Assembly: GCA_041660025.1 (NCBI GenBank)
Contig: JBAZXD010000002.1
Span: 4,635-68,634, forward strand
DNA: 64,000 nucleotides
DNA from: Minisyncoccota bacterium
GTDB taxonomy: Bacteria; Patescibacteriota; Minisyncoccia; Phycocordibacterales; Phycocordibacteraceae
Direction: 5' to 3'
Part shown: positions 11,593-32,036 of the stretch, in pieces
Layout of the letters: each line of letters opens with the position of its first letter
Numbering within the stretch: the stretch's first letter is position 1
Notes under the pieces: model-generated
Told to the model about the DNA's origin: nothing
Database searches by the model: none
The model's input: the letters and a program-made list of their open reading frames with translations, nothing else
Made by a program: the position numbers and the translations under genes

Positions 11593-11627
11593 GATACACG
11601 CGCCTTGCGGCAGCCAACATTTTACCT

Positions 11628-13798: not shown

Positions 13799-13801
13799 CC
13801 T

Positions 13802-14545
13802 ATGAAAGGCATCATTTTAGCTGGAGGTTTAGGTTCCAGACTCTATCCGCTTACTTACGCGACGAACAAACACCTGCTCCCCGTATTTGATCAGCCGATG
13901 ATTTTTTATCCAATCCAGACTCTCCTAAGGGCGGGCATACGGGACATTATGATTGTGGTTGGCGGACCGCACTCAGGGAGTTTTATTTCGGTTTTGAAAA
14001 ACGGCAAAGAACTAGGTATCCGCCATTTGGAGTTTGCGTACCAAGAGAGCATACTCCGTGACGGCCTAAAGATTGAGGGAGGAATCTCTCATGCATTATC
14101 GTTGTGCGAGGACTTTGCGCAGCGCTCTCCAATAGCGGTTATCTTAGGAGACAATACTACCGATGCGGATATCTCTGTCCCTGTGAGAAATTTTCAGAAT
14201 GGGGCGACGGTATTTCTTAAGAAAGTATCGGATCCAAATCGATATGGTGTGCCGATATTTGATAAAAAAGAAAAAAGAAAAATCATTACTATTGAGGAAA
14301 AACCAAAACGGCCCAAATCAAATTACGCCATTACGGGACTCTATTTATACGACAATACTGTGTTTGACAGAATACGGACACTTATACCATCGGCGAGAGG
14401 GGAACTTGAAATAACAGACTTAAATAATTCTTATATTGCAGATGATGAACTCTCCTGGCTAAAGTTGAATGGTTTCTGGACCGACGCAGGAACGTTCAGA
14501 AGCTTGTTTGAAGCCAATCAATTTTGGGCGCATAAGAAACACTGA
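13802..14545 (+). CDS. Sugar-1-phosphate nucleotidyltransferase (RfbA/glucose-1-phosphate thymidylyltransferase-like). First gene of the low-GC island.
   Basis: MKGIILAGGLGSRLYPLTYATNKHLLPVFDQPMIFYPIQTLLRAGI. GC content drops abruptly from here. Confidence 0.65.
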   Translation: MKGIILAGGLGSRLYPLTYATNKHLLPVFDQPMIFYPIQTLLRAGIRDIMIVVGGPHSGSFISVLKNGKELGIRHLEFAYQESILRDGLKIEGGISHALSLCEDFAQRSPIAVILGDNTTDADISVPVRNFQNGATVFLKKVSDPNRYGVPIFDKKEKRKIITIEEKPKRPKSNYAITGLYLYDNTVFDRIRTLIPSARGELEITDLNNSYIADDELSWLKLNGFWTDAGTFRSLFEANQFWAHKKH

Positions 14546-14627
14546 ATGTAGGAAACCACTCCGTTTATTTTGTCGTTATAGAGTCCATATGATGGTATCA
14601 GCATATCGCTTGTGTTAGAGTCTCACA

Positions 14628-15488
14628 ATGGCGGTAAAGAAAGGAAATAAGCCGTTAATCGGCTTCATAGGTCAGGGATACATCGGCAAAAATTATGCTG
14701 ATGACTTCGAGAAGCGTGGCTTCTCGACCGTGCGGTATGCGCTTGAAGAGCCTTATAGAGACAACAAGGAGAAGATAAAAGAGTGCGCTATTGTTTTCAT
14801 TGCAGTACCTACTCCGACGACACCGCGAGGCTTTGATGATTCGATCGTACGCGGCGCGATTGAGTTCGTGGAGAAGGGAAGCGTTATTATCGTTAAGTCA
14901 ACCATCGTACCGGGTACGGCAAAATCGCTTCAAGCGCAATATCCAGACCGTATACTTTTCTATTCTCCCGAGTTCCTCTCCGAAGCGACTGCTACGTACG
15001 ACGCCGCTCATCCATTCGCGAATATCCTCGGTTTCGCGGTGGATGATGAGATGCATCAAGTCGCAGCAGAACAGGTGCACAAACTCCTCCCCTCCGCACC
15101 TTTTTCGCTCACCTGTGACAGTACCGAAGCGGAGCTCATAAAATACGCGCACAATGTAAATGGCTTCGTACAGGTCGTGCTCTGGAACACGTTTTATGAT
15201 CTGGCGACAAAAAGTGGAAGCAACTGGGGGGTGGTGCAGAAGGCGCTTGCTGCCGACCCGTACGTTTCGAGCAAATATCTTTCACCGGTGCATAAAACCG
15301 GTCGCGGTGCGGGCGGGCATTGCTTCATTAAAGACTTTGCCGCATTGCGCGGATTGTATGAAGACCAGGTCGGAGATGTTGAGGGCGTGGCGGTGCTTTC
15401 TGCGCTTGAGAACAAGAACATTGCGCTCTTGAAAGAGAGCGGAAAGGATCTCGACCTTCTGAAGGGTGTCTACGGAGAAACGATATGA
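14628..15488 (+). CDS. UDP-glucose/GDP-mannose dehydrogenase family protein. It is short (286 aa): the N-terminal NAD-binding and central domains are present, but the C-terminal UDP-binding domain is absent.
   Basis: GFIGQGYIGKNYA Rossmann, FIAVPTP, VKSTIVPGT, SPEFLSEA and GGHCFIKD (the catalytic Cys region) align with UDPGDH motifs. A stop follows only about 30 aa after the Cys motif. Confidence 0.5.
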   Translation: MAVKKGNKPLIGFIGQGYIGKNYADDFEKRGFSTVRYALEEPYRDNKEKIKECAIVFIAVPTPTTPRGFDDSIVRGAIEFVEKGSVIIVKSTIVPGTAKSLQAQYPDRILFYSPEFLSEATATYDAAHPFANILGFAVDDEMHQVAAEQVHKLLPSAPFSLTCDSTEAELIKYAHNVNGFVQVVLWNTFYDLATKSGSNWGVVQKALAADPYVSSKYLSPVHKTGRGAGGHCFIKDFAALRGLYEDQVGDVEGVAVLSALENKNIALLKESGKDLDLLKGVYGETI

Positions 15489-15591
15489 AAAGAATCTCTG
15501 TTACTGGCGATATTATTCCGGCGGTAGAATACATATCGCACGGGGAATCACGGCCTTATCACGAGAGTCTATAGTCTAGAGAGATCAACAG

Positions 15592-16215
15592 ATGACTTTC
15601 TTGGAAATACACAATATGGAAAGAGGAGAATACAAAAAATTCATAGATGAAAAAATGGCCGCAATCGCCAAAGAGAAGATTATTTTAGACGTAGGCGGAG
15701 GAGAACGGTTCACGAAATGGCTTTCGGAATATCGCGACCTGTTCGATGATTGCGATTATAAGACGATGGATTTCGATCACTCGACGGGTGCCGATGTGGT
15801 AGGTGATATCCATAAAATTCCGCTCATAGATGGTAGTGTTGATGCGGTCATTTGCAGTTCCGTGCTCGAGCATGTCGAAAATCCGATTCTTGCAGTACAT
15901 GAAATTCATAGGATACTGAAAGACGGAGGAAAGCTGTTTGTCTCCATACCTTCTATTTATCCCTATCATGCGCGGAAAGGGCACTATCCCGACTACTGGA
16001 GGTTTTTCGACGATACGATAGACATATTGTTCCGAGATTTCGGTAAGGTCGAGTTCGTGAAGAGAGGCGGGTATTTTAAGGCACTGTTTTTCTTTCTACC
16101 ACTGCAGCATCGCCTACGATTCATCATAGATCCCCTAGCCGGATGTATGGATTCCTTGCTTCGAACAGAAAAAAGAAGCACCACCTCTGGCTATTATATT
16201 TATGCAGTTAAATAA
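15592..16215 (+). CDS. Class I SAM-dependent methyltransferase
   Basis: ILDVGGGERF (motif I), VICSSVLEHV and GKLFVSIP (Methyltransf_11-like). Confidence 0.6.
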   Translation: MTFLEIHNMERGEYKKFIDEKMAAIAKEKIILDVGGGERFTKWLSEYRDLFDDCDYKTMDFDHSTGADVVGDIHKIPLIDGSVDAVICSSVLEHVENPILAVHEIHRILKDGGKLFVSIPSIYPYHARKGHYPDYWRFFDDTIDILFRDFGKVEFVKRGGYFKALFFFLPLQHRLRFIIDPLAGCMDSLLRTEKRSTTSGYYIYAVK

Positions 16216-17383
16216 CACACCGCGACACGGCACACTGGTGTATGTGACCAGTACGAGGTTCCCCACGGAAAAAGCTCACGGCCTCGCTACTGTGAAGTTG
16301 TGCGAAGCTTTTGCAAGGCGCGGATACGCCGTGGATGTCCTTGCGCCGCGTCTGTGGAGAAGGGACGGAGGCGATGTCTTCGACTACTATGACGTAAAAA
16401 ATACTTTCCGCATCGTGAAGATCCCCTGCATAGACCTTATCCCGCTTCGGGTCATTGATACACTCGCGTTTCTCCTACAGTCAATCTCTTTTTCTCTCCT
16501 CGCGCTCCTGTATGTAGCCAGCGTCTACAGAGCCAAGATGAAAAAGTGTATATTCTTTTCTCACGACTACATACCGTTATATTTCATGACGTTCTTGCCG
16601 GTCAGTATCTTCTATGACGTGCATCATTTCCCAGGGAATAATTTCATGTATCGGAGGGTGGTAAAGAGAGCGTTCGGTTTTGCCGTTCAGACAAAATGGA
16701 AAGTCAACGAGCTTTCGGATAAATTCGGGATCGCTCCAGAAAGAATCGTTTATTGGCCGAATGGGACCGATATACGAGCGTTCGACGATTTACCAACGAA
16801 GAACACGACACGGAAAGAGCTTTCGTTGCCTACCGACAAGAAGATCATCATGTATACCGGACAGCTTTTTGAATGGAAAGGTGTGGATTCACTACTGCGG
16901 TCGATCACGATGCTCCCTTCGGATGCCGTACTCTATATAGTGGGCGGTGCGGACAGTGATGTCGTCCGGTGTAAGAAAGAGATACCAGAAGCCAATGATG
17001 CACGAATCGTCTTCATCCCGTTCCAGTCGCATGAAAAGATTCCCGTATGGCTCAATTCTGCAGATGTTTTAGTGCTCCCGAATACTGGAAAGCAGAAAGT
17101 TTCTTTGTATTACACCTCGCCAATGAAATTGTTTGAATATATGGCTTCGGGCAGGCCGATTGTAGCGAGCGCCATCCCGTCTCTGCAGGAGATATTGAAC
17201 GATAGGAATGCGGTGCTGGTCGAGCCTGATAACCCAGAAGCTCTGGCGGCGGGTATCCGATCGGTCCTGGATGATGCGGCGACGGCGGAAAAGATCTCTA
17301 GGAATGCCAAGATCGATTCCCGGGAATATACCTGGGATGGCCGTACGCAAAGGATCGGAGCGTATTTTGAAAAGTATGCATAA
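16202..17383 (+). CDS. Glycosyltransferase family 4
   Basis: YTGQLFEWKGVDSLL and NTGKQKVSLYYTSPMKLFEYMASGRPIVASAIPSLQE. Confidence 0.65.
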   Translation: MQLNNTPRHGTLVYVTSTRFPTEKAHGLATVKLCEAFARRGYAVDVLAPRLWRRDGGDVFDYYDVKNTFRIVKIPCIDLIPLRVIDTLAFLLQSISFSLLALLYVASVYRAKMKKCIFFSHDYIPLYFMTFLPVSIFYDVHHFPGNNFMYRRVVKRAFGFAVQTKWKVNELSDKFGIAPERIVYWPNGTDIRAFDDLPTKNTTRKELSLPTDKKIIMYTGQLFEWKGVDSLLRSITMLPSDAVLYIVGGADSDVVRCKKEIPEANDARIVFIPFQSHEKIPVWLNSADVLVLPNTGKQKVSLYYTSPMKLFEYMASGRPIVASAIPSLQEILNDRNAVLVEPDNPEALAAGIRSVLDDAATAEKISRNAKIDSREYTWDGRTQRIGAYFEKYA

Positions 17384-18563
17384 GATAACGGTCTTCTATA
17401 CGAGAGTGCTCATCCTGTTTTCCTTCGTGCTCTTTCCTTTCATCCTTCTCTTAATCTGGGTCAGGAAGAGTCGGAATAGGAGAGTGAATCTAGAGAAGAT
17501 GCGTATCTTGATACTGCCCCAATTGACGAGGATAGGGGACGTCGTTTGCTCCACGCCGGTCTTCAGGGCTCTGAAAGAAGCATACCCAGACGGCCATCTC
17601 GCAGTCCTATCTTCCCTGAATGCGTGCGGGATACTGAAGAACAATCCGAGAATAGATGAGATCATAGTCATCGAAGATTGGCAGGATAACTTCCTCGGAT
17701 TGCTTCGGAAGATACGGGATGATCGCTTCGACTGGGGGATATCTCTTTCCGGTTCGGCATTGAGCTCGGTTCTATTCTTTTACGGGCTGATTCCGAACAG
17801 ACTGAAGATAACGAGGAGCGCACGACCTTTCGCGGAGATCTATTCTGATTGGATGTGCACCCTTAGGGAGGAATATGGCGCGCTTTCCTACTTACCGATT
17901 TTCTATCTGAAGATGCTTCGACATCTCGGGATACACTCTTCAGATGACAGGAAAGAAGTCTTCTGTCGGCTAGAATCGGGAGAGCGGGTCGAAGCTTTCT
18001 TCAGAAGCAAGCGGGTAGCTCCAGAGGACACGATTGTGGGCGTCAGTCTGAGCGCTGGCAATAAAATAAAGGAATGGGGCGACGATAAGTTTGAGGCGTT
18101 GTGCCGGGAGATACGTAAAGATTATGGGATGAAGATTGTCATCATAGGGTCTCTGTATGAGAAACAGCGTATCGATGCACTCCTCGGGAAGCTTGGCGAT
18201 CCGACTGCGTTCATAAGTGCTGTCGGATTCTCCATCGAGGAGTTGCCGGACCTGATGAAGAGATTTTCATACTTCATCGCCGTGGACACGGGGCCCGTGC
18301 ATATTGCGCACGCTCTCGATATCCCGATCATCGATATACTCGGGCCGGTGAATGATATAGAGCTGACGCCCAGAGGAAACGCGGCCATTATCGTCAAGTC
18401 GCCTTCGGATATCCCGCCAACGATATTTGCTTTTCAGGAAGCATTAGATCGTGAGTTGACCAAGAAATCCATGGATTCAATAACGGTCGCCAAGGTTCTG
18501 GATGCTTTTGATTGTCTTGTAAAACAGACCCAGATACCACGAACCCCGCGGGCCGTTGTATAA
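17376..18563 (+). CDS. Glycosyltransferase family 9 (heptosyltransferase-like)
   Basis: MRILILPQLTRIGDVVCSTPVFRALKEAYPDGHLAVLS and VDTGPVHIAHALDIPII are GT9 hallmarks. Start is at the internal MHKITVF, which overlaps the upstream stop. Confidence 0.65.
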   Translation: MHKITVFYTRVLILFSFVLFPFILLLIWVRKSRNRRVNLEKMRILILPQLTRIGDVVCSTPVFRALKEAYPDGHLAVLSSLNACGILKNNPRIDEIIVIEDWQDNFLGLLRKIRDDRFDWGISLSGSALSSVLFFYGLIPNRLKITRSARPFAEIYSDWMCTLREEYGALSYLPIFYLKMLRHLGIHSSDDRKEVFCRLESGERVEAFFRSKRVAPEDTIVGVSLSAGNKIKEWGDDKFEALCREIRKDYGMKIVIIGSLYEKQRIDALLGKLGDPTAFISAVGFSIEELPDLMKRFSYFIAVDTGPVHIAHALDIPIIDILGPVNDIELTPRGNAAIIVKSPSDIPPTIFAFQEALDRELTKKSMDSITVAKVLDAFDCLVKQTQIPRTPRAVV

Positions 18564-18593
18564 AGGCTAAAAATAAGTAATATATAATAAAGT

Positions 18594-19550
18594 ATGTCCA
18601 CCATTTTAGTAACAGGAAGTAAGGGCGTTGTAGGAAGTTACCTGACGTCCATGTTGGCCGCTAAAGGTCATCGAGTCTTCGGCATTGACCTAAGTCATTC
18701 TGTTGGAGAGATAGGCTGGGCGCAGGAAATGGCAAAGACTGACTTCACGTACGCGCGCTGTGATGTTGCTGATTTCCGGCAGCTGGAACGTGTTTTCGAT
18801 GACGCTGGCCCTTTTGATTTCGTATATCACACAGCCGCAGAATTCGGCCGCTGGAATGGAGAAGATTACTATGAACAGGTCTGGCGCACCAATGCCATCG
18901 GGACAAAGAATATAATCCGCCTTCAGGAAAAGCTTGGTTTCAAGCTCATCCATTTTTCTTCGTCCGAAGTATATGGAGATTTTGAAGACGTGATGAAAGA
19001 GGATGTGATGGATCTTGTCGAGATAAAACAACTGAACGACTATGCTCTTTCTAAATGGGTAAACGAGCAACAGATAAGGAATTCAATTATCCAACATGGG
19101 ACACAAACGGTTGTCGTACGTCTTTTCAATACATTCGGTCCGGGAGAGTGGTACCACCCCTACAGAAGCGTTAATGCCAAGTTCTGCTACAGCGCTTTGC
19201 ACAGCACACCGATTACCGTGTATAAGGGCCACTATCGCACCTCCACGTATCTTGAGGATACCTGCCGAACGCTTTCGAATATCATAGCTAATTTCAAAGC
19301 TGGCGAGATATATAACATAGGCGGACTGGAATATCACGACATCGAGACCCTTGCAGATATCATTTGGGATTATACAGGAGCCGATCGGAAGCTTATACAG
19401 TACGCGGGGTCTGAGAAACTGACCACAAAATATAAGAAGGTAGATATAAGTAAGGCGGTAAATGATCTTGACCATAAGCTTACAGTAGGTCTCGAAGACG
19501 GCGTGAAGAAGACCGTCGACTGGATGAGAGCCTATTATGGAATCAAATAA
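18594..19550 (+). CDS. NAD-dependent epimerase/dehydratase family protein
   Basis: MSTILVTGSKGVVGSYLTSMLAAKGHRVFGIDL and YALSK (YxxxK). Confidence 0.65.
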   Translation: MSTILVTGSKGVVGSYLTSMLAAKGHRVFGIDLSHSVGEIGWAQEMAKTDFTYARCDVADFRQLERVFDDAGPFDFVYHTAAEFGRWNGEDYYEQVWRTNAIGTKNIIRLQEKLGFKLIHFSSSEVYGDFEDVMKEDVMDLVEIKQLNDYALSKWVNEQQIRNSIIQHGTQTVVVRLFNTFGPGEWYHPYRSVNAKFCYSALHSTPITVYKGHYRTSTYLEDTCRTLSNIIANFKAGEIYNIGGLEYHDIETLADIIWDYTGADRKLIQYAGSEKLTTKYKKVDISKAVNDLDHKLTVGLEDGVKKTVDWMRAYYGIK

Positions 19551-20634
19551 TAAGGAAATCAGGCACCTTGCGATGATAATGGGAGCGCGGCCGAATTTCA
19601 TCAAGGCCGCGTCTCTTTGTGCAGAAGTCAAGAATCATCCAGAATTCAAGCTCACTCTCATACATACCGGACAGCATTTCGATAAAAATATGTCCGATAT
19701 TTTCTTTGAAGAAATGCGGATTCCGCGCCCCCAGGTGACATTGAATATTATGGCAGACAGGCATTCGGAAAAGATCGGTAGGATGTTTAATTCTTTGCAG
19801 GCCACGCTTTCAGAACTTTCTCCTGATGGTGTTCTAGTATTTGGCGACGTTAACTCAACTCTTGCCGGAGCTTTGGCTTCCGCAAAGAATCGTATTCCGC
19901 TCATACACGTCGAAGCCGGTTTACGAAGCCACGATAGGCGTATGCCGGAAGAGATAAATAGAGTTATTGTTGATCATCTTTCAGATGTGCTTTTTACCAC
20001 CGAACCTTCTGCGGATGAAAATCTGAAAAGAGAAGGGATTGATCCAAGTAGAATTCATCACGTGGGAAACTTAATGATAGAAAGCCTTGAACGCTATAGA
20101 GACGATATAGATTCTTCTCGAGTTCTTGACACCGTAAATCATAAAGATTATTTCATAGCGACGATTCACCGCCAGGAAAATACCGATGATCGGACTTCGC
20201 TTGAAAGGGTACTCTTCCTTCTCGATCGGATTTCAAGAAAGAAACCTGTAATTTTTCCATTACATCCAGGTACCAGAAAGAAAATAGAGGGGTACGGACT
20301 AAGCGAACTTCTCTCCAATTTAAGCGTTATAGAACCTTTGGGTTATTTTGATTTCATAAAACTCGTTCAGGAGAGCTCTGGAGTAATAACCGACTCGGGC
20401 GGGATACAGGAGGAGACGACCCATCTAGGAGTCCCTTGTGCAACGCTACGCGATAATACGGAACGCCCCATAACTGTCGAGGCTGGATCAAATAGACTTT
20501 TTGACATACGGTCAATCAGTCCAAAAGAAATACTTTTACATTTCAGCAGATCGTATCCTGCGCGGCCGATACCTCTCTGGGATGACAAAGTCAGTAAGCG
20601 CATATTTAAGTCTCTTCATACTTTCTTCAAGTAA
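19537..20634 (+). CDS. wecB: UDP-N-acetylglucosamine 2-epimerase, non-hydrolysing
   Basis: MGARPNFIKAASL, TGQHFDKNMSDIFFEEMRIP, HVEAGLRSHDRRMPEEINR and HPGTRKKIE are Epimerase_2 motifs. Confidence 0.75.
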   Translation: MESNNKEIRHLAMIMGARPNFIKAASLCAEVKNHPEFKLTLIHTGQHFDKNMSDIFFEEMRIPRPQVTLNIMADRHSEKIGRMFNSLQATLSELSPDGVLVFGDVNSTLAGALASAKNRIPLIHVEAGLRSHDRRMPEEINRVIVDHLSDVLFTTEPSADENLKREGIDPSRIHHVGNLMIESLERYRDDIDSSRVLDTVNHKDYFIATIHRQENTDDRTSLERVLFLLDRISRKKPVIFPLHPGTRKKIEGYGLSELLSNLSVIEPLGYFDFIKLVQESSGVITDSGGIQEETTHLGVPCATLRDNTERPITVEAGSNRLFDIRSISPKEILLHFSRSYPARPIPLWDDKVSKRIFKSLHTFFK

Positions 20635-20670
20635 GGGAAGAAATCGTAGGGTAGAGAAATGAAATGTTTT

Positions 20671-21540
20671 CTATTTAGGAGTATATTTGGCAAGATCAAT
20701 CAAAGAATAGAAAAAATCTTTCATTGCAGCGTACATCTTAGGTGATTTTCTTTGTAATACGTTTATACCTGGAATCCTGTCGCGCAGTCGATATATCTTC
20801 TTATTAGAAATCATGTTCCCGCCGTATATCTTGGCGATGCGACGACGTTCTTCATTGAAAAGTTTCTGTTTCGTCATGGTGTTCGAGCCGCTCCAAAGGC
20901 GGAATGCTCCGAGCGTGACAGGGATATATACGGACTTGCCAACAGCAAGTATCCTGAACCAGAGCTCGAGGTCCATGCAGTAGCTATAGGATTCGTCAGG
21001 CAACCCCACTTTATCAATGATGCGTTTCGTAAAGAAATTGAGCAGGAGAGAGCTTCCGCGCGTCCTGAGGCTCTCGAACGTCTCATTCGGGCGCGGGCGC
21101 GGTTCTATCGTGTTAGGTCGGCTGCCGTCCTCATATACCTTGAGGGTGTCGCCATAGAGCAAATCTACACTCGGATCTTTCTCATAGGCGTCGACGACGG
21201 CCTGGAATGCGCCCGGTAAGTAGTAATCATCTGAATTCATCCAAGCGAGGATCTCTCCTTTCGCCATATGAAAACCTTCATTTATGGTTTTTGTCTGACC
21301 CTTATTCTCGCGGCTGATGCATGTGTACGAGAGCCCCAGACATTTAATTGGCCAGCGGCCTTCTTTCAGCAGGGTGTCGTATTCTTCGATTATCTCTTTC
21401 GTATTGTCCGGTGAGCCGTCATTGATGACTATATATTCTACATAGAAATTTCCTTCCTGCTTGAGAACGCTTTCGATGGCTTGCGCGACAAATTGTGGTT
21501 GTTTGTATGTGGGCGTGACTATACTTATTGTTATTGCCAT
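20671..21540 (-). CDS. Glycosyltransferase family 2
   Basis: ISIVTPTYKQPQFVAQAIESVLKQEGNFYVEYIVINDGSPDNT and a DxD region NSDDYY. Confidence 0.7.
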   Translation of the reverse strand: MAITISIVTPTYKQPQFVAQAIESVLKQEGNFYVEYIVINDGSPDNTKEIIEEYDTLLKEGRWPIKCLGLSYTCISRENKGQTKTINEGFHMAKGEILAWMNSDDYYLPGAFQAVVDAYEKDPSVDLLYGDTLKVYEDGSRPNTIEPRPRPNETFESLRTRGSSLLLNFFTKRIIDKVGLPDESYSYCMDLELWFRILAVGKSVYIPVTLGAFRLWSGSNTMTKQKLFNEERRRIAKIYGGNMISNKKIYRLRDRIPGINVLQRKSPKMYAAMKDFFYSLIDLAKYTPK

Positions 21541-21548
21541 AGGTGAGA

Positions 21549-22208: not shown

Positions 22209-22325
22209 AGCTGCTTGTCTGGAAATAATACTCGATTAGCGATATTTAGCCACTTTTCTCAGATGATGATGGTTATCTTTATTATTGTGAATACAGCAGG
22301 CCGCTGATATATTTACGTTACTTCA

Positions 22326-23696: not shown

Positions 23697-23729
23697 CATC
23701 TGTGCAGTATTCGCGCCGTTTCCTACGTA

Positions 23730-24374: not shown

Positions 24375-24385
24375 TTTCGGTTATT

Positions 24386-25120: not shown

Positions 25121-25235
25121 AAAATTGGTCGTTCTTACTTCCTTTTGTGCGTCCCGTAGCCAGTTGTCGTTTAATGTAGCATACCAGAGTCTTTATTTGT
25201 AGATCGCCATACTTCTCGCGTCGTTTGTCATTGAA

Positions 25236-27683
25236 GTGAAAAGCGGATACTATACAGCGGTAAAATACCGTCTCTCTAGACTGCATAATCCACCAATGAC
25301 TGAGTCCCTGAAAAACGAAGAATTAACGATTTGCACCGTTTCCTTTGGGCACAAGGATCTTATAGAGGCCAATATCGAATTGACCGGTAAAATGAATCCG
25401 GGACGGGACATACGATGGATTATCGTTGAAAACACCCCGGATGATAAAAGCGGTACGTTTACTTTGGGGGAAAGAGGGAACATCAAGGTCATAAAAGGGA
25501 TACAGAACGATTTCAAAGGAGTAGGTTCCGCCAGCTATCATCACGCCTCCGGCTTAAATAGAGTCATGGGAGAAGTGACGACTAGATATGCGTTAGTGCT
25601 GGACCCTGATTTCTTCATACTCAGGAAAAATTGGGCGAAAGATATCATGAGTCATATGGAACGATATAAGCTGGCTTTCTTTGGAGTCCCCTACAACCCG
25701 AAGAGGTACATGAAATACAGAGGGTTTCCTTGCATACATTGCATGTTTATTGACTTGGATAAAGTTAATAAGGAAGAAATTGACTTTAATCCTAGTTACA
25801 AACAATCATCGCCTGACGTTAGCAATAGAGCTGTTATGCCGAAAGATGGGGGAGTGGCCAGGAATTTTTTTAATACTCTGAAGCGTCATGTGAGAATTGC
25901 GCTGAAAAGAAGCTCAATAATAGGATCATCGAGAGATACGGGATACGGACTTTTCGAAAGGTTCCACACTGCAGAGAATATAAGAAGCGAGTGCGCCACG
26001 CCTGTATTTAAGCCCCATAGTTCCAGCATAAAGCCATCCTGGATAGGTTCGGTAGCAAATGCTGCGATAGAGAGATTCTTGCCGGAAAATTTGTGCTACC
26101 TGCCGAAAGACCATGGCTACTATTCGGAGAGAGGTTTTAAGGAATCCGGTTTTGAAGACGTTTTTGGCGAAGGCTGGGACGAATTTATATGGAAAGGTGA
26201 GCCGTTCGGTTTTCATCTGCAGGGAGCGAATAAAGACGGTACGACGAAAGACCATTCCGGGGAGACGAGACGTCTTTCAGAAATCCTTGATAATTTCTAT
26301 CAACGCGGAAGAGTGAAGAATGTCTTTTTCGCGATGTTTGAAGGAGTAGAGTCGAAGAACATTCTGAGAACGGGCATCGTGAAAAAAGTATTGGCATCTG
26401 ATTCGAGCACTCGCGCTGTCCTTTTCATGAAGAATAAAGAGCGTGCCGAATACTATGCGAAGGAATTCTCGGATCCGAGAATCATCTATGAGGTGATAGA
26501 TGCGGGCAATCTCGGATTCGCTGACAGGATCTTCAGTTTTCTTAAGTTCAAATTCTTGCAGACTGAGACGACAGATTTGCGTGCGAAGATGATAAGAGAA
26601 GAACGAGGAGTCGTGTATTATTACTACTCCCTCGTGCTCCACCGGATTCTCGCCAGGTCGTTTTTCGTATCGTTATTTAGATGGCTCGATCTTATATTGG
26701 TCCGGAATATTTCTTTTGATAGCTATTTCGAAAGATATAATCCAACCTTGATACTGCTCGCCAATCTTTTTGAAGACCATGAGACTAACTTTCTGCGTGC
26801 CGCAAAGAAATATAGTGTGTTTAGCGTGGGACTTATCAATAGCTGGGATAGAGTAACCGCACGGTGCGTACTGAGAGTCCTGCCGGACAAGTTAATCGTT
26901 TTCAATAGTACGGTAAAGAAAGAAGTCATCGAAACGAATTACGTGGAACCGGCGGATATTTTCATTTCCGGATTGCCCCAGTACGATTACTACTTCTCTC
27001 CGATTCGTGTTGCACGGAAAGATTTCTTAAGGAAATTGGGTCTCGAGGATGACGAAAGGATAGTCTTTTATTCTCCCATCGGCGGCATGTTCAGCAATTC
27101 TGATTGGGAGATGATAGACCTTCTGTATAGCATGAATAGCGAAGGAAAATTCGGCGAAAAGGTAAAAATATTCGTCAGTTTTCCGCCGAACGATTTCATA
27201 AAAGAAGAGGAGTTGAGAAAGAGACCTTGGCTTCCTTATCAGTATATTGGAACGAGATTTTCCAGCGTCAGGTCGACAGACTGGGATATAAAAGGAGAAG
27301 AACTCGAAGATCTTAAGAATCTTCTCTTCCATGCATCCATCGTACTGTGCTATGCATCAAGTCTTTCCATCGACGCAGCAATCTTCGATAAGCCGATTAT
27401 AAACATAAATTTCGAGATAAAAGACAATGAAAGTTTATCAAAATCACCGACTGCCTTTTATAAGATGACTCACTATGAGAAAGCGCTACATGCAGGCGGC
27501 ATACGGTTAGTGAACAACGAAAGCGAACTCATAGAATGGATTAGAAGATACCTGGAAGACCCTTCCGTGGATAGGGACGGAAGGAAGAGGCTTGTAGAAA
27601 GACAGTGCGAATACACCGATGGTAAATCTGCAGACAGGATTGCCGGGTATCTCTGCAGCTTTTTAGGTCGCGCAGCTACTTGA
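25236..27683 (+). CDS. Large (about 800 aa) putative bifunctional glycan-assembly enzyme. The N-terminal part is GT-A-like (DxD LVLDPD). The C-terminal part resembles CDP-glycerol/ribitol-phosphate transferases (TagB/TagF-like).
   Basis: YALVLDPDFFIL, then a C-terminal region with IVFYSPIGGMF (compare the TagF motif LYAPTWR) and HASIVLCYASSLSIDAAIFDKPIINI. Weak homology recognition. Alternative start at 25296. Confidence 0.35.
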   Translation: MKSGYYTAVKYRLSRLHNPPMTESLKNEELTICTVSFGHKDLIEANIELTGKMNPGRDIRWIIVENTPDDKSGTFTLGERGNIKVIKGIQNDFKGVGSASYHHASGLNRVMGEVTTRYALVLDPDFFILRKNWAKDIMSHMERYKLAFFGVPYNPKRYMKYRGFPCIHCMFIDLDKVNKEEIDFNPSYKQSSPDVSNRAVMPKDGGVARNFFNTLKRHVRIALKRSSIIGSSRDTGYGLFERFHTAENIRSECATPVFKPHSSSIKPSWIGSVANAAIERFLPENLCYLPKDHGYYSERGFKESGFEDVFGEGWDEFIWKGEPFGFHLQGANKDGTTKDHSGETRRLSEILDNFYQRGRVKNVFFAMFEGVESKNILRTGIVKKVLASDSSTRAVLFMKNKERAEYYAKEFSDPRIIYEVIDAGNLGFADRIFSFLKFKFLQTETTDLRAKMIREERGVVYYYYSLVLHRILARSFFVSLFRWLDLILVRNISFDSYFERYNPTLILLANLFEDHETNFLRAAKKYSVFSVGLINSWDRVTARCVLRVLPDKLIVFNSTVKKEVIETNYVEPADIFISGLPQYDYYFSPIRVARKDFLRKLGLEDDERIVFYSPIGGMFSNSDWEMIDLLYSMNSEGKFGEKVKIFVSFPPNDFIKEEELRKRPWLPYQYIGTRFSSVRSTDWDIKGEELEDLKNLLFHASIVLCYASSLSIDAAIFDKPIININFEIKDNESLSKSPTAFYKMTHYEKALHAGGIRLVNNESELIEWIRRYLEDPSVDRDGRKRLVERQCEYTDGKSADRIAGYLCSFLGRAAT

Positions 27684-28239
27684 TGGCGCGGAGCTCTATG
27701 GTAAAGGTTTTTATTATGTCCCAAAAAAATCTGATGAAAAATCGATTATTGAAGAGTAGGGCCCGTGCCCCAGAAGGATTATAATATTTGTAGGAGATCT
27801 TCTCTATTTTCAGATTGCATTTCAGATCATAATCCGGCAAGAGGCCATGATCCGCGAAGCTTTTATCGAAGTATTCGAATGTTCTCTCGGAGAAAAATCT
27901 TTTATGAGTGGGATCTTTGAATGCCGCTGTTGATTTAAGATAGGGGACAATAATCGTCACTTTGGCATCTTTTCTGCAGACCCGGTAGATTTCTTCCATG
28001 ATAAAAACCGTATCATCCACGTGCTCCAAGATGCTGAATGCGGTCAATTCATCTACGGAATCATCCGCGAGCGGGATACCCTTGTTCAAGTCTGCAACGA
28101 TATCGACCTCAGGATATGGGAGCCGGTCTATGTTGATGAAACCTTCTTTCCGGTTCGGCCCGCCACCGAGATTCACTTTTTTCTTTTCAACAGGAGTTTC
28201 CATGCCTCTTAGACTTATAAGTATATGATTACACGTCAT
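27676..28239 (-). CDS. Class I SAM-dependent methyltransferase (short, Methyltransf_11/23-like)
   Basis: VNLGGGPNRKEGFINID, LTAFSILEHV and DAKVTIIVP. Alternative start at METPV (28203). Confidence 0.55.
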   Translation of the reverse strand: MTCNHILISLRGMETPVEKKKVNLGGGPNRKEGFINIDRLPYPEVDIVADLNKGIPLADDSVDELTAFSILEHVDDTVFIMEEIYRVCRKDAKVTIIVPYLKSTAAFKDPTHKRFFSERTFEYFDKSFADHGLLPDYDLKCNLKIEKISYKYYNPSGARALLFNNRFFIRFFWDIIKTFTIELRAIK

Positions 28240-28361
28240 TTCTTACAAGGTTGTGATATCGGCTGTGCTAGAATTACCCAATCGGTAACGTATTGTCCAA
28301 ATCATAGGTTTATGTAATATAACGCTATATCCTGCCCACTAAGATTATTTTTGCGGATTTT

Positions 28362-29186
28362 ATGAACATAAAACAAGTCTTTTTTCTAGATCGTCGGGGG
28401 GAGATTGTCGGGACGCCAGAAAAGCAGACCAAGAAAGTAATAAATTCTTCCGTGGCATTCCCCATTGTCGTTGAGTATTATGATTGGGATTTGGATAAGC
28501 AGGCAAAAAGCGCTGAACAGTATAAGGATCAGATAAAACGCGTGTTTTATCAGGAGGGAGTGGATGATGCGGTGAAAGTAATGCTACAGGACGATGTGGC
28601 ACGTTTGAACTTGGTTCAGAAACTTGACTACGGCTCCAGAATCTTGGAAGTCGGGTCAAGTGACGGCTCAGTGAGCGTTAAGATTGCGGCGCAAAAAAAA
28701 GTAAGAGAAATCCTAGCAATCGATATACGCCAATCAGCCATCAGTGACGGGAAGAAGCTCGTTCGGGATTTAGTCAAGGACGGGGAGATTTCCGCTTCAG
28801 TTGCCCAGAAAATAAGTCTTAAGAAATATGCGATTCAAGATCTACCGGGACGGTACGGCACGTTCGACAGCGTCTGCGCCTATGAAGTCTTTGAGCACCT
28901 TGCCCCATGGGACATGATGCCGGTCTTCGAACATATATATAAGTTCATAAAACCGAAAGGGAAATTTTTCATAAGTGTACCCAATCGTTTTCCGGACTCC
29001 AAGTATGAAAAACAAGGAAGAAGCCGCTGGCGCTGGTTTGATCATAGGAATTTCTTTAGTCAGGTCAGTCTCAATCTTTTTTTGATGTCCTTCTTTAAAA
29101 AAGTTACTTTTTATCCGCTCTATCCTCACGAAAAGGCTGGAGACAGCCTCTACCTCATTTGCGAATGCTATGGCAAAAGATTCTAA
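28362..29186 (+). CDS. Class I SAM-dependent methyltransferase
   Basis: ILEVGSSDGSVSVKIA, VCAYEVFEHL and GKFFISVPN. Confidence 0.55.
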   Translation: MNIKQVFFLDRRGEIVGTPEKQTKKVINSSVAFPIVVEYYDWDLDKQAKSAEQYKDQIKRVFYQEGVDDAVKVMLQDDVARLNLVQKLDYGSRILEVGSSDGSVSVKIAAQKKVREILAIDIRQSAISDGKKLVRDLVKDGEISASVAQKISLKKYAIQDLPGRYGTFDSVCAYEVFEHLAPWDMMPVFEHIYKFIKPKGKFFISVPNRFPDSKYEKQGRSRWRWFDHRNFFSQVSLNLFLMSFFKKVTFYPLYPHEKAGDSLYLICECYGKRF

Positions 29187-30015
29187 ATTGAAAATAATAG
29201 CTGAAATCGCATCTTCGCATAATGGCGACGTTGGTCTCGGCAAAAGAATGATACAGATTGCTGCATCTGCCGGCGTTGATATCGTTAAGTTCCAGTCCTG
29301 GCAGAGCAGAAATGTCGATGAGAGCGATCCGGATAAGGCGCGCTACGCTTCCCTTGAGTTATCTGACGATGCTCACTATGAGCTGAAAGAGGAATGTGAG
29401 AAAAACGGCGTTGAGTTCCTGACTACCTGCTATAACAGCGATCGGATACCGTTCCTGAAAGAACTCGGTCTGGAAAAAATCAAAGTAGCAAGCACCGATC
29501 TGAAGGCGTCACACTTTCTGAAGAAACTCCGCGATAACTTCAAAGAGGTAATCGTTTCTACAGGAATGTCGACCAAAGAAGAGATAGAACAAGCGGTAGA
29601 AATATTAAAGAGCGGAGAATTCACGATGATGCACTGCGTTTCGGTCTACCCCTGCCCGCTTGAAAAAGCCAATATGGGAAAGTTACTCTGGCTGCAGAGA
29701 TTGACGCCGCATGTCGGTTATTCCGACCATACTGAAGGGATCGAAGCACCAATTTTTGCCATGGGCATGGGGGTAAAATACATAGAAAAACATTTCACTC
29801 TTGATAAACACACTCTGCAAACACCACATGCGGTCGGTAAGGGGATACCTCCAATCACTACGCATTCGATTGCCAGCGAACCGGAAACATTCAGACAGAT
29901 TTGTGAGTGGCGCGATAAATATGAAATAGCCTTGGGTAATGGTAGCCTGGAGCTTCTACCTGAGGAGAGATTGACAAGAGAAAAATATACTGGCCGGTTG
30001 GGCCGGAATGACTAA
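29170..30015 (+). CDS. neuB: N-acetylneuraminate (nonulosonic acid) synthase, NeuB family. TIM-barrel core only, no C-terminal SAF/antifreeze-like domain.
   Basis: KIIAEIASSHNGDVGLGKRMIQIAASAGVDIVKFQSW matches the NeuB N-terminal signature. Confidence 0.7.
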   Translation: MAKDSKLKIIAEIASSHNGDVGLGKRMIQIAASAGVDIVKFQSWQSRNVDESDPDKARYASLELSDDAHYELKEECEKNGVEFLTTCYNSDRIPFLKELGLEKIKVASTDLKASHFLKKLRDNFKEVIVSTGMSTKEEIEQAVEILKSGEFTMMHCVSVYPCPLEKANMGKLLWLQRLTPHVGYSDHTEGIEAPIFAMGMGVKYIEKHFTLDKHTLQTPHAVGKGIPPITTHSIASEPETFRQICEWRDKYEIALGNGSLELLPEERLTREKYTGRLGRND

Positions 30016-30018
30016 TGT

Positions 30019-31191
30019 ATGACTGATACCATGAAAAAGAGGAAGATCTGTTTTGTCATAACCAGTTTCATCCACTACAGCAGGAATATGCTTGTCCTGG
30101 AGGAACTGAAGAAAAGGCCTGATGTCGAACTCCATGTCGTGATTGGCGGTGCGGCATTGATCTCTCGATATGCCTCGAGGTCTGCGACGATCAGCCAGAT
30201 TCTTATTAATGATCATTTCGAGCATATTCATGAAATTCACTTCAATCTTGAAGGAGATCTTCCTATCATCAAAGGCAAGACAACGGGCTTGGGGATAATA
30301 GAGTTCTCGACACTGTTCAACAACCTCAAGCCGGACCTGGTGGTAATCAGGGGTGATAGATTCGAAGTTTTAGCAGCCGTAATCGCTGCTGCGTACTCAA
30401 ATATTCCGATTGCCCATATAGAAGGCGGGGATGTCTCCGGCACGATAGATGAAAGCGTCCGACACGCAATTACGAAATTCTCGCACATTCATTTTCCTAC
30501 TAATACCGAATCGAAGGACCGTATCATCCGAATGGGCGAGGATCCAAAATACATTTTCAATCTAGGCTCCCCAGAGGTGGAGGTTGTTTCGAAGATGAAA
30601 AAAAAGAATTATAAAATTGATATCGCCAAGACAGGTAGCGGAGCGGACATTTCTCTCAGCAAGGATTACATCATCGTGATGTATCATCCGGTGACGACTG
30701 AATTGAAGGACAGCGTTTCGAACATACAAAAGCTCATCAAGGTCGTTCATGAACTCAATGTACAGACACTATGGTTCTGGCCTAATGCCGATGTCGGTTC
30801 CGAAGAGATCGCCCATCAGTTGCGCATATTCAACGATAGAACCAGGAATCATAAGATACGCTTCCTGCGAGATATCCCTTCCAGAGAATTCTTAACACTT
30901 CTTAAAAACAGCCGTTGCTTGGTGGGAAATTCTTCGGCAGGTATGAAAGAATGTTCATATTTTGGCGTACCTGCCGTGAATATCGGCACTAGGCAGAACG
31001 GCCGATTGCACGCGAAGAACGTCATAAACGTCACTCACAGTGAAGCTTCGATACGAGAGGGAATCCGAACACAGATGAGGAAGAAACGATACCCCTCTTC
31101 GGATCTATACAAAGCCGATAACACCGCAAAGAAAATGGCGGAAGTTATGGCGACAATCAATCTATATGTGCAGAAACGATTTATTGATTAA
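30019..31191 (+). CDS. neuC: UDP-N-acetylglucosamine 2-epimerase, hydrolysing (NeuC-like)
   Basis: KICFVITSFIHYSRNMLVLEEL, IAHIEGGDVSGTIDESVRHAITKFSHIHFPTN and HPVTTE are Epimerase_2 motifs. It sits directly between the neuB-like and neuA-like genes. Confidence 0.7.
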   Translation: MTDTMKKRKICFVITSFIHYSRNMLVLEELKKRPDVELHVVIGGAALISRYASRSATISQILINDHFEHIHEIHFNLEGDLPIIKGKTTGLGIIEFSTLFNNLKPDLVVIRGDRFEVLAAVIAAAYSNIPIAHIEGGDVSGTIDESVRHAITKFSHIHFPTNTESKDRIIRMGEDPKYIFNLGSPEVEVVSKMKKKNYKIDIAKTGSGADISLSKDYIIVMYHPVTTELKDSVSNIQKLIKVVHELNVQTLWFWPNADVGSEEIAHQLRIFNDRTRNHKIRFLRDIPSREFLTLLKNSRCLVGNSSAGMKECSYFGVPAVNIGTRQNGRLHAKNVINVTHSEASIREGIRTQMRKKRYPSSDLYKADNTAKKMAEVMATINLYVQKRFID

Positions 31192-31193
31192 AT

Positions 31194-31928
31194 ATGATTT
31201 TTGAGAAAAAAATCCTAGGAGTCATCACCGCGCGTGGCGGGTCGAAAGGGCTGCCAGGGAAGAACATAAAACTGCTCAACGGGAAACCGCTCATCGTGTA
31301 TACGATAGAAGCCGCTCGAGAAAGCAGACTGATTACCGATCTCATCGTCTCGACGGACAGCGAGGAGATAGCCGGAATCTGTCGCGAGCACGGGGCAGAG
31401 GTTCCCTTCATCCAGCCGGCGGAATTGGCGACCGACACCTCAGGACATCTTGAGGTTATGCAATACGCGACGAAGTTCATGGAAGAGCAGAAAAGCACTG
31501 CCTATGATTATGTCGTGATATTCCAACCCACCTCTCCGTTCCGTACGGTGGATGACATAGACAAGACAATTGAAAAAATAATCGAGCACAATGCGGACAG
31601 CGCCTTTTCCATGTGTGCAGTAGAGCCCAGCCAGCATCCAATCAAGGTGAAAAAAATGGAAGGAGATACAGTACTGCCGTATTGTATGGAAGAAATGATC
31701 GGCACCCATCGGCAGGATTTCCCGAAAGCGTATAAGCGTTCAGGTGCGGTATATGTCACGGGGCGCGATATTTTGATGAAAGAAAATAAACTATTCGGTG
31801 ACTTCATAGTGGGTCACATCGTGCCTGCCGAACGTTCGATTGATATCGATACCGAATACGATTGGGTCTTGGCGGAATATAAATACAAAAAACTTAAAGA
31901 GCAGGGGTTCTTTGGAAAGACGGCTTGA
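31194..31928 (+). CDS. neuA: Acylneuraminate cytidylyltransferase (CMP-nonulosonic acid synthetase)
   Basis: ILGVITARGGSKGLPGKNIKLLNGKPLIVYTIEAA is the CTP_transf_3 signature. Last gene of the low-GC island. Confidence 0.75.
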   Translation: MIFEKKILGVITARGGSKGLPGKNIKLLNGKPLIVYTIEAARESRLITDLIVSTDSEEIAGICREHGAEVPFIQPAELATDTSGHLEVMQYATKFMEEQKSTAYDYVVIFQPTSPFRTVDDIDKTIEKIIEHNADSAFSMCAVEPSQHPIKVKKMEGDTVLPYCMEEMIGTHRQDFPKAYKRSGAVYVTGRDILMKENKLFGDFIVGHIVPAERSIDIDTEYDWVLAEYKYKKLKEQGFFGKTA

Positions 31929-32036
31929 TACTAGACCACCACTCCTCTTATTCCAAGATGCAGAGGGCGTGATATCATTACCGTATCCTCCCTGGAGGAG
32001 AAGGATCATTATCCCGTAACTAACTATTAAGCCAGT

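Follow-up and report, generated by a model that had tools for sequence, protein, structure and literature searches.

How did an 18-kb block of low-GC glycan genes come to lie inside a high-GC genome, and what does it make? The question is raised by a 64,000-nucleotide stretch of contig JBAZXD010000002.1 from a Minisyncoccota bacterium, here called the window. The block, or island, spans positions 13,802-31,928 (18.1 kb, 18 genes) and ends in homologs of neuB, neuC and neuA, the genes of nonulosonic-acid (sialic-acid-like sugar) synthesis. We consider it likely that the island is an exchanged cassette in a hypervariable surface-glycan locus, and that it includes a sialic-acid-like pathway.

The compositional step is sharp. 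In 1-kb windows, the GC content is 0.42-0.49 over 14-32 kb and 0.55-0.63 on either side, while at 200-nt resolution a fall from 0.64 to 0.47 spans 13,700-13,900 and the recovery spans 31,900-32,200. All 18 island genes have a GC content of 0.43-0.51 (mean 0.459; 0.52 at third codon positions, GC3), against a mean of 0.575 (GC3 0.68) for the 22 flank genes, 21 of which lie at 0.54-0.63 (Mann-Whitney p = 6e-7). The GC-normalised tetranucleotide signature of the island also differs from that of the flanks. Both borders coincide with gene ends. On the left, the stop codon of a flanking GT4 glycosyltransferase gene (GT4_d) at 13,798 is separated by a 3-nt spacer from the first island ATG at 13,802; on the right, the island closes with the stop codon of the NeuA-like gene at 31,928. 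The original prediction, made from the letters of the window, placed a GC drop on a gene boundary at 13,800 and a recovery past 31,930. Windowed and per-gene values both agree with it, the profile is anything but uniform, and the island displays the compositional deviation with sharp borders that characterises genomic islands.

The closest counterpart of the island lies in a distant organism of the candidate phyla radiation (CPR). On a 67-kb JGI contig (JGI 3300037810; L083/L168), the 15 island genes (out of 18) that run from GT4 to NeuA have collinear counterparts at 63-85% identity, with NeuB 85% identical. That cassette has a GC content of 0.35 (GC3 0.25-0.38) against 0.43-0.45 in its own flanks, and is followed by an IS200-like Y1 transposase and then by the genes for MurB and a protein that resembles O-antigen ligases and has C-terminal TPR repeats (Wzy_C/TPR) in the order Wzy_C/TPR-MurB. 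The L168 Wzy_C/TPR is only 34% identical to its homolog in the window; its nearest matches in the set are those of contigs L027 and L031, whose SecA is about 58% identical to that of the window. About 20 closer relatives (Wzy_C/TPR mostly 62-77%, SecA mostly 70-86%) carry no NeuB ortholog of more than 32% identity. Because the cassette is far more similar than the core translocase, and because closer relatives lack it, these comparisons, which rest on pairwise identities rather than trees, show that horizontal exchange among distantly related CPR lineages has, judged from sequence, involved the island or, at the minimum, the 15.7 kb on its right that reach from GT4 to NeuA. An L168-type cassette with 99.96% nucleotide identity to L168 is present in the sequencing run of the window itself (Logan SRR18595301_28528; L169), so the hosts of both cassettes co-occur. 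The L168-type and window cassettes share about 70% nucleotide identity and have GC contents of 0.35 and 0.46, respectively. The relatives of the cassette belong to other CPR bacteria and not to an unrelated phylum.

The island genes were assigned to families by Pfam and NCBIfam profile scores against the model cut-offs, and are as follows, with class I S-adenosylmethionine (SAM) methyltransferases numbered MT1 to MT6.

13802..14545, plus strand: RmlA-like sugar-1-phosphate nucleotidyltransferase, 247 amino acids (aa); PF00483 169 bits, TIGR01207 223 bits (below the cut-off of 360)
14628..15488, plus strand: short UDP-sugar-dehydrogenase-like protein, 286 aa; PF03721 and PF00984, no C-terminal domain
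15592..16215, plus strand: MT1, class I SAM methyltransferase; PF08241, PF13489
16202..17383, plus strand: GT4 glycosyltransferase; PF00534 92 bits; 65% identity to L168
17337..18563, plus strand: GT9 (heptosyltransferase-family) glycosyltransferase; PF01075 55 bits; start per Logan gene call; 63% in L168
18594..19550, plus strand: short-chain dehydrogenase/reductase (SDR) of epimerase/dehydratase type; PF01370 135 bits; 85% in L168
19537..20634, plus strand: WecB/MnaA, non-hydrolysing UDP-GlcNAc 2-epimerase making UDP-ManNAc; TIGR00236 294 bits (cut-off 210)
20671..21540, minus strand: GT2 glycosyltransferase; PF00535 89 bits; 82% in L168
21549..22208, minus strand: MT2, class I SAM methyltransferase; PF08241
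22326..23696, plus strand: Wzx-like flippase (Polysacc_synt); PF01943 31.6 bits (cut-off 28.2); 72% in L168
23730..24374, minus strand: MT3, class I SAM methyltransferase; PF13489 77 bits
24386..25120, minus strand: MT4, class I SAM methyltransferase; PF13649 72 bits
25296..27683, plus strand: two-domain TagF-like glycosyltransferase, 795 aa; PF04464 46-48 bits (cut-off 22.1)
27676..28203, minus strand: MT5, class I SAM methyltransferase; PF08241 28.5 bits; start per Logan gene call
28362..29186, plus strand: MT6, methyltransferase of the nonulosonic-acid module; PF13489; stop overlaps the NeuB start
29170..30015, plus strand: NeuB-family synthase, 281 aa; PF03102 190 bits
30019..31191, plus strand: NeuC, hydrolysing UDP-GlcNAc 2-epimerase; TIGR03568 355 bits (cut-off 236)
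31194..31928, plus strand: NeuA-like CMP-nonulosonic-acid synthetase, the last low-GC gene; PF02348 90 bits

Every family listed in the original prediction is recovered (RmlA-like, dehydrogenase-like, GT4, GT9, GT2, WecB, flippase, TagF-like, six methyltransferases and the NeuB-, NeuC- and NeuA-like proteins), but of the two SDRs it named only the one at 18,594-19,550 exists. Its statement that neuB-, neuC- and neuA-like genes close the island at 29170-31928 agrees with both the profiles and the Protein Data Bank (PDB) matches. The RmlA-like gene, the first low-GC gene, has a GC content of 0.43, and its homologs in other Kaiserbacteria cassettes are 80-82% identical at GC 0.50-0.55. The 284-286-aa form of the dehydrogenase-like protein recurs in L085, L086, L087 and L109; a truncated pseudogene is ruled out by this conservation of the short form in at least four other contigs. 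The best NCBIfam match of the SDR is dTDP-glucose 4,6-dehydratase (111 bits, under the cut-off). For the specificity of the methyltransferases, NCBIfam and PDB searches returned generic class-I matches only.

The last three genes correspond to an established three-step route, in which UDP-GlcNAc is converted to N-acetylmannosamine (ManNAc), ManNAc and phosphoenolpyruvate (PEP) yield N-acetylneuraminic acid (Neu5Ac), and Neu5Ac and CTP yield the cytidine-monophosphate-activated sugar, CMP-Neu5Ac. NeuC scores above the TIGR03568 cut-off and far above its score on the non-hydrolysing wecB model, on which it reaches 70 bits; its best PDB match is the epimerase domain of human GNE (228 bits), with LegG at 194 bits. 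For NeuA, CMP-Neu5Ac synthetases in the PDB score 88-120 bits, against at most 36 bits for KdsB. NeuB covers model positions 1-239 of 241 of the PF03102 barrel, for which the cut-off is 22.1 bits. The three proteins could have turned out to be unrelated TIM-barrel and epimerase proteins, or NeuA a KdsB-type enzyme; the scores speak for neither.

The NeuB-family synthase departs from the textbook enzyme in its architecture. Its best PDB match is 6ncs, annotated as 'N-acetylneuraminic acid synthetase' (119 bits, 290 aa), followed by PseI (92 bits) and Neisseria meningitidis NeuB (78 bits). In the alignment with N. meningitidis NeuB (1xuu), the equivalents of E25, K53, Q55, K129, S132, S154, Y186, S213, H215, E234 and H236 are kept, along with the histidines of the SDH and EKH motifs, the Glu of AEI, and the KFQ, KvAS and STG motifs. 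In the N. meningitidis enzyme, these residues include the metal-binding histidines and the PEP-binding Lys, Ser and Glu. Two positions are substituted, E134 by D and N184 by S. The same D and S occur in 6ncs, which is likewise a barrel without the SAF (antifreeze-like) domain; the alignment to it is well short of identity, and as no established product of 6ncs is known to us, the match does not settle the sugar made here. The closest homologs of the island NeuB form a clade of SAF-less proteins of 275-291 aa whose named sources are almost all Patescibacteria or Parcubacteria.

Several of these features weigh against a straightforward sialic acid synthase. NeuB remains under the equivalog cut-offs (TIGR03569 207 bits, below 400; PseI TIGR03586 138 bits, below 340), profile scans detect no SAF domain, and the protein stops 23 residues past the barrel. 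In N. meningitidis NeuB, the SAF domain supplies an Arg that is essential for catalysis. Since this domain is absent, substrate binding must differ and the product is not certain. NeuA also falls short of a dedicated assignment: it scores 174 bits on the PseF model (below 206), and no dedicated NeuA or LegF model matched.

The CMP-activated acid requires a transferase, for which the 795-aa protein is the foremost candidate. Its N-terminal domain is weakly GT2-like, of the GT-A fold, with a DPD motif; its C-terminal 455 residues are TagF/TagB-like, of the GT-B fold, and occur as stand-alone 450-aa proteins in other CPR contigs. A TagF-like gene lies beside the NeuB module in every contig inspected (L083, L085, L086, L170 and L171). 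No TagD-, TarI- or TarJ-type gene for CDP-polyol synthesis is found in the island by Pfam and NCBIfam, nor is any known sialyltransferase family present there. Because a TagF-like gene accompanies the module throughout these contigs, the island makes no CDP-polyol and the CMP-acid is the sole CMP donor, the 795-aa protein is the likeliest transferase, an assignment to which we give roughly even chances. The genetically validated pseudaminic-acid (Pse) and legionaminic-acid (Leg) transferases of Tannerella forsythia, the BFO_1060 family, are TagB-like (PMC5420450).

The enzyme itself also offers points against this assignment. It scores 45 bits on the BFO_1060 family model (NF046086), under the cut-off of 200, and thus falls outside the family; by inspection, its GT-B domain lacks the HP motif, and no D/E-D/E-G motif was found in it (motifs as defined for that family in PMC5420450). 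Its AlphaFold2 model (pLDDT 82) returns generic GT-B matches in Foldseek against the PDB (WecB, MshA, TagF 3l7k, TarL 8va1), which do not discriminate between sialyltransferase-like and TagF-like. The 795-aa protein might instead be a polyol- or sugar-phosphate transferase producing a teichoic-acid-like decoration, with the acid moved by another glycosyltransferase or not moved here. This alternative, which we hold possible though doubtful, draws on the absence of the two motifs, on Glyphos_transf being the sole Pfam family over its cut-off, on WecB/MnaA as a provider of ManNAc, the classical TagB acceptor, and on L171, where a further TagF-like gene lies beside an FGGY kinase, an NTP-transferase and an iron-dependent alcohol dehydrogenase (Fe-ADH) that could make a CDP-polyol. 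It is opposed by the lack of TagD/TarI/TarJ-like genes in the island, where a CMP-nonulosonic acid is the only CMP- or CDP-activated donor that can be made, by the constant company of TagF-like and MT6-NeuB genes, by the TagB-like nature of the validated T. forsythia transferases, and by the want of a known sialyltransferase family to do the work instead. In some CPR contigs, two or three tandem TagF-like paralogs adjoin the NeuB module (L170:1956-6069, L085:5760-9174); they may serve several linkages or a polymer.

Which acid the module makes is approached through the genes that accompany it. Profile scores and PDB matches do not fix a single sugar, as the models used cannot separate NeuC from LegG, or NeuB from LegI. 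In the 64-kb window, tblastn finds no DegT-type aminotransferase, and Pfam scans of the island and flank open reading frames (ORFs) find no N-acetyltransferase or PseG; the collinear L168 cassette likewise lacks all three. The LegB/LegC/LegH set is not in the window, where the island SDR reaches 72 bits on the LegB model (cut-off 475), and PseB, PseC, PseH and PseG are not found there either, a NeuC-type epimerase being present instead. With no aminotransferase or acetyltransferase in the window, a Neu5Ac-type sugar is favoured over Leg or Pse, and we put it, on the gene content, somewhat above an even chance. A Leg- or Pse-type product, with the dehydratase, aminotransferase and N-acetyltransferase steps encoded elsewhere or carried out via the island SDR and RmlA-like proteins, is unlikely. 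It can appeal to TIGR03568 and TIGR03569, each of which covers both Neu and Leg forms, to the nearness of the LegG and GNE scores, to PseF as the best NCBIfam match of NeuA, to the NTP-transferase and the SDR with its weak LegB similarity in the island, and to the PseB-like and aminotransferase genes found at this locus in relatives. Besides the missing genes, in the window and in the L168 cassette alike, it is contradicted by the preference of NeuB for the NeuB model over the PseI model (207 against 138 bits), by a hydrolysing 2-epimerase foreign to the Pse route, and by the CMP-Neu5Ac synthetases as the nearest solved structures to NeuA. The remaining probability belongs to a product that is neither Neu5Ac- nor Leg/Pse-type.

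The acid may be methylated. In each of the six other contigs inspected (L083, L085, L086, L087, L170, L171), the gene immediately upstream of NeuB is an MT6 ortholog (30-80% identity), and 31 of 59 MT6 homologs are on contigs of exactly the same size as a contig with a NeuB homolog. The family is small, with 39 members at E <= 1e-10 among 1.84 billion cluster representatives. L171 (6691-8004), P0220 and P0222 provide fusion proteins in which a NeuA-like CTP_transf_3 domain at the N terminus is joined to an MT6-like domain at the C terminus, and the L171 fusion stands directly upstream of a SAF-less NeuB. This conserved adjacency, together with the fusion, argues that MT6 is dedicated to the nonulosonic-acid module and has the acid or its CMP form as its substrate. 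The slot between the TagF-like and MT6-like genes holds additional genes in some lineages: Formyl_trans_N and Polysacc_deac_1 genes in L086 and L171, which suggest N-deacetylated or N-formylated derivatives there, and a 2-hydroxyacid dehydrogenase in L170. Such additions hint at a family of derivatives.

Export appears to be of the Wzx/Wzy type, with the flippase (PF01943) and the Wzy_C domain of the ligase (PF04932, 66 bits, cut-off 31.7) both over their cut-offs. The initiating step is a gap that counts against this scheme: the window has no Bac_transf homolog, the WecA/MraY type not having been searched specifically, and an initiating phosphoglycosyl transferase may be encoded elsewhere in the genome. 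The Wzy_C/TPR gene adjoins murB in a conserved arrangement, directly follows NeuA in contig L086, and retains 62-77% identity across Kaiserbacteria despite differing upstream cassettes. Since it stays constant while the cassettes change, we infer that it is ligase- or O-oligosaccharyltransferase-like, unlike a serotype-specific polymerase, and that it would ligate or transfer whatever glycan the variable region makes.

The surroundings of the island explain where it sits. The host is, by its SecA and gene order, a CPR bacterium related to Ca. Kaiserbacteria, and is described as an ultra-small, Kaiserbacteria-like groundwater bacterium. SecA is 82-86% identical to metagenome-assembled genomes (MAGs) named Ca. 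Kaiserbacteria, Paceibacterota or Parcubacteria, the order Wzy-MurB-SecA-Obg-GatB is common to the window and Kaiserbacteria MAGs, and a protein 100% identical to the 795-aa enzyme, encoded on a 137-kb contig, has been deposited as one of Ca. Paceibacterota, so the 'CPR-like' genome of the original prediction is well founded. A look-up of the exact SecA protein returned no record. An Rfam scan of the 64-kb window matched no family, and no rRNA gene was found there. The flanks encode a Mur ligase, MurB, SecA, Obg and GatB, and on either side of the island the following parts.

5475..13798, mixed strands: native high-GC left glycan part (Pfam; order conserved in about 40 metagenome contigs), made up of the next eight genes
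5475-6425: SDR (Pfam)
6422-7585: GT4 (Pfam)
7595-8368: IMPase-family phosphatase (Pfam)
8365-9849, minus strand: kinase-like ORF
9496-10461: SDR (Pfam)
10417-11592, minus strand: GT4 (Pfam)
11577-12662: GT4 (Pfam)
12659-13798: GT4_d, the left anchor (Pfam; 59-84% identity in relatives)
32037..32906, plus strand: secreted protein, the right anchor (43-70% identity, same position in nine Kaiserbacteria loci)
33056..35230, plus strand: Wzy_C membrane protein (O-antigen-ligase-like) whose C terminus carries TPR repeats

The secreted protein directly upstream of Wzy_C/TPR combines a signal peptide with an acidic region rich in Ser, Thr and Asp and with a coiled coil; that it could be an acceptor for glycosylation is pure speculation.

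In relatives, the flanks are constant and the interior is not. The right-hand order, secreted protein-Wzy_C/TPR-MurB-SecA-Obg-GatB-HTH, is kept in about 20 genome loci, and about 40 metagenome contigs keep the left-hand order, MurLig-TPmeth-T4CP-PKD-SDR-GT4...GT4_d. Dozens of Kaiserbacteria contigs have syntenic flanks at 60-86% identity and lack this cassette. The stretch between the anchors differs in every relative and always measures at least 10 kb. Wzy_C/TPR is covered together with several kb of upstream sequence in 20 genome loci, and eight of these contain NeuB-like genes, only 23-32% identical to that of the window and in some cases of full length, with SAF and accompanied by NeuC. 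They are of several kinds: a full-length NeuB (418 bits, above the cut-off) with NeuC in L007, 340-351-aa NeuB-like forms in L004, L009 and L012, and another SAF-less type in L015 and L026; L005 has PseB-like and aminotransferase genes at the locus. Export is provided by an ABC transporter in some relatives and by a Wzx-like flippase in others. The pattern is that of an O-antigen-like hypervariable locus with nonulosonic acids as a recurring theme, and as other nonulosonic-acid genes recur there, the cassette brings no novel trait to the lineage. None of the 80 metagenome loci, and none of the roughly 20 genome loci, shows an empty site with GT4_d adjoining Wzy_C/TPR, for which reason 'replacement' is preferred over 'insertion'. 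The idea of a foreign cassette inserted into a native glycosylation locus is therefore retained in two parts, the incongruence of the cassette with its flanks and the syntenic native glycan genes around it, but not as a simple insertion, since the event looks like replacement at a hypervariable site.

Several points weigh against horizontal exchange, or against reading too much into it. The evidence throughout is in silico and metagenome-derived. The RmlA-like and short dehydrogenase-like proteins have 74-82% identical homologs of higher GC in other Kaiserbacteria, and the left 2.4 kb (RmlA, short dehydrogenase, MT1) may have a separate history. The window contains no tRNA or tmRNA gene, integrase or transposase, and direct and inverted repeats across 13-33 kb do not exceed the level of chance. 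Relatives commonly show a GC dip of 2-8 points downstream of GT4_d, and one of 14 points is seen in L109. Considering this general dip and the position of the L168 cassette below its own flanks, the low GC may be partly a property of the locus and not a donor signature alone. Taken to its end, this argument makes the cassette vertically inherited and its composition a local mutational or selective bias of glycan loci, with which the dip in most relatives, the low GC of the L168 cassette and the lack of mobility genes would all agree. Such a history is very unlikely: it does not account for cassette proteins shared at 63-85% identity with an organism whose Wzy_C/TPR is at 34%, nor for the missing NeuB orthologs in about 20 closer relatives, and the step of 12-15 points in the window is at the extreme end of the range in relatives.

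Horizontal exchange, the preferred reading, likely proceeded by homologous recombination in the conserved flanks rather than on a mobile element. An integrated element, whether an integrative island or a prophage remnant, is suggested by the sharp compositional step, by the Y1 transposase after NeuA in L083/L168 and by a gene at 2408-4273 for a coupling protein (T4CP) of a type IV secretion system. The borders, however, show no integrase, transposase, tRNA or direct repeat, all 18 island genes are devoted to glycan biosynthesis, and the T4CP gene is part of the conserved high-GC flank, which makes this origin highly improbable. An integrative element was tried and dropped, there being no tRNA or tmRNA, no Rfam family and only chance-level repeats. 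The coupling-protein-like gene itself is of the TrwB/TraG type, and a PKD-domain protein is also encoded in the left flank; as both occur at 60-82% identity (most at 70-82%) in most related contigs, they are not island-associated.

That a low-GC CPR fragment was joined to a high-GC Kaiserbacteria contig in assembly or binning, as the metagenomic source, the related cassette L169 in the same run and a 99%-identical NeuB (P0001) on a 2.5-kb contig labelled Omnitrophica might suggest, can hardly be entertained, because both junctions recur at 100% identity in two separate Logan contigs of run SRR18595301 (the left one in L082, 13,030-17,146; the right one in L001/L084, about 17.1-32.5 kb, which extends into the high-GC gene that begins at 32,037), the co-occurring cassette is, at about 70% nucleotide identity, too divergent for a mis-join, the genes abut operon-fashion and frame-appropriately across the 3-nt left spacer, and the cassette occupies the slot that in every relative holds a glycan cassette of variable content. 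Although deposited as 'Candidatus Omnitrophica bacterium', the P0001 contig probably stems from Kaiserbacteria and was binned wrongly.

Read from the gene families, the pathway would run as follows. NeuC would hydrolyse and epimerise UDP-GlcNAc to ManNAc, the SAF-less NeuB would condense ManNAc with PEP to a Neu5Ac-type nonulosonic acid, NeuA would convert the acid to its CMP-sugar, and MT6 would methylate the acid or the CMP form. WecB and the RmlA-like, SDR and short dehydrogenase-like proteins would supply UDP-ManNAc and other nucleoside-diphosphate (NDP) sugars, from which the GT4, GT9 and GT2 enzymes, with the flanking GT4s, could assemble a lipid-linked oligosaccharide. The five further methyltransferases may O-methylate this oligosaccharide, and the TagF/TagB-like domain of the 795-aa enzyme is proposed to add the CMP-activated acid. 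Wzx would then flip the unit across the membrane, and Wzy_C/TPR would ligate it to a cell-surface acceptor, perhaps a protein, a cell-wall component or a lipid.

The nearest described system is the glycan locus of T. forsythia, which contains wzx, glycosyltransferases, three methyltransferases, wecB/wecC, asnB and a TagB-like transferase, and in which CMP-Pse or CMP-Leg genes are swapped between strains (PMC6120980, PMC5420450). The island has a closely similar inventory and shares with it wzx, genes for a CMP-nonulosonic acid, several glycosyltransferases and methyltransferases and wecB, an asnB homolog being present in the related CPR contig L085; a TagB-like nonulosonic-acid transferase is in the window a candidate only. 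In T. forsythia, the acid module (Pse or Leg) at a fixed position changes from strain to strain, and the Kaiserbacteria relatives appear to behave likewise. In contrast, T. forsythia belongs to the Bacteroidota and has another cell envelope than CPR bacteria, it uses a six-gene Pse or Leg route where the island has NeuC, NeuB and NeuA alone, and the island NeuB is SAF-less, with its module coupled to a dedicated methyltransferase. The 795-aa enzyme differs from the BFO_1060 family in its low model score and in the extra N-terminal GT-A domain.

O-antigen and capsule clusters of Gram-negative bacteria are low-GC, hypervariable, placed between conserved flanks and exchanged by recombination. The island resembles them as a low-GC cassette between anchors, with Wzx, glycosyltransferases and NDP-sugar genes, a content that varies among close relatives, no need of mobility genes and a conserved Wzy_C-type ligase outside the variable part. 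It differs in its CPR host, with no lipopolysaccharide pathway evident in the window, in a Wzy_C that is fused to TPR and adjoins murB, and in cassette relatives spread over very divergent CPR families.

Relative to the NeuC-NeuB-NeuA enzymes of N. meningitidis and E. coli K1 (1xuu, 1eyr), the same three families occur in one operon, with NeuC over its equivalog cut-off, the metal and PEP ligands of NeuB kept and NeuA-like structures as the top PDB matches. The island differs through its 281-aa NeuB without the SAF domain and with the E134D and N184S exchanges, through an extra, obligately linked methyltransferase, and by having no polysialyltransferase or known sialyltransferase family. The 795-aa protein shares with the TagB/TagF CDP-glycerol glycerophosphotransferases (3l7k) the Pfam family, the GT-B fold with its helical insertion and the nearness of WecB/MnaA; it is set apart by the lack of CDP-glycerol genes here, the linkage to a CMP-nonulosonic-acid module and the GT-A fusion.

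CPR bacteria live attached to other cells, and to our knowledge almost nothing is known of their surface chemistry. Elsewhere, nine-carbon acidic sugars act in adhesion, in immune and phage recognition and in charge. Full-text searches of the literature yielded no treatment of nonulosonic acids in CPR, Patescibacteria or Parcubacteria, which does not prove that none exists. The family of every part is already known and the logic is familiar from other bacteria; new are the host group, a synthase that lacks SAF and is coupled to a methyltransferase, the TagF-like enzyme of two domains and the exchange of a cassette between very divergent co-living CPR lineages. The findings suggest a glycan locus that recombines and is serotype-like in Kaiserbacteria-like organisms, which would commonly display nine-carbon acidic sugars on their surface. 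The class of nonulosonic-acid transferases to which the 795-aa enzyme may belong has few members, and Wzy_C/TPR is a candidate for the enzyme that places glycans on the CPR surface. A wider generalisation is tentative: Parcubacteria-type CPR might share a dedicated, so far undescribed module (SAF-less NeuB, NeuC, NeuA and an obligate methyltransferase, sometimes NeuA-fused) for a methylated sialic-acid-like sugar that TagF-like transferases install and a Wzy_C/TPR ligase displays, with formyltransferase/deacetylase or hydroxyacid-dehydrogenase genes as variable additions and whole cassettes being exchanged between co-occurring lineages. If so, the surface of these episymbionts would vary in the manner of serotypes, with consequences for host attachment and phage evasion.

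Three other features of the window lie outside the island. The 494-aa ORF on the minus strand at 8365-9849 has no Pfam or NCBIfam match and is 40-79% identical in relatives, adjoining the IMPase-family gene. It contains a motif, 'HTDFVPHNF', that resembles aminoglycoside or choline kinase-like proteins, and as about 350 nt of the ORF overlap the SDR at 9496-10461, translation probably begins at an internal start. Between MurB and SecA, at 36689-40047, lie the gene of a 985-aa LCAT/alpha-beta-hydrolase-like protein and a low-GC (0.435) ORF of 134 aa; in the relatives that have both (L005, L017, L034), the pair is found downstream of SecA, which marks a second variable spot. At the right end of the window, two giant ORFs stand in tandem, one of 2732 aa at 46329-54527 and one of more than 3000 aa that begins at 54700 and runs off the window past 64000. 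The first encodes an N-terminal HTH_17 domain, two Peptidase_S74 (endosialidase-chaperone) domains and an Ig-like domain, and its composition is uneven, with GC 0.64 and a strongly negative GC skew at 47-49 kb and GC 0.48 at 49-50 kb. In the second, tandem repeats of 48 nt occupy 60935-61139.

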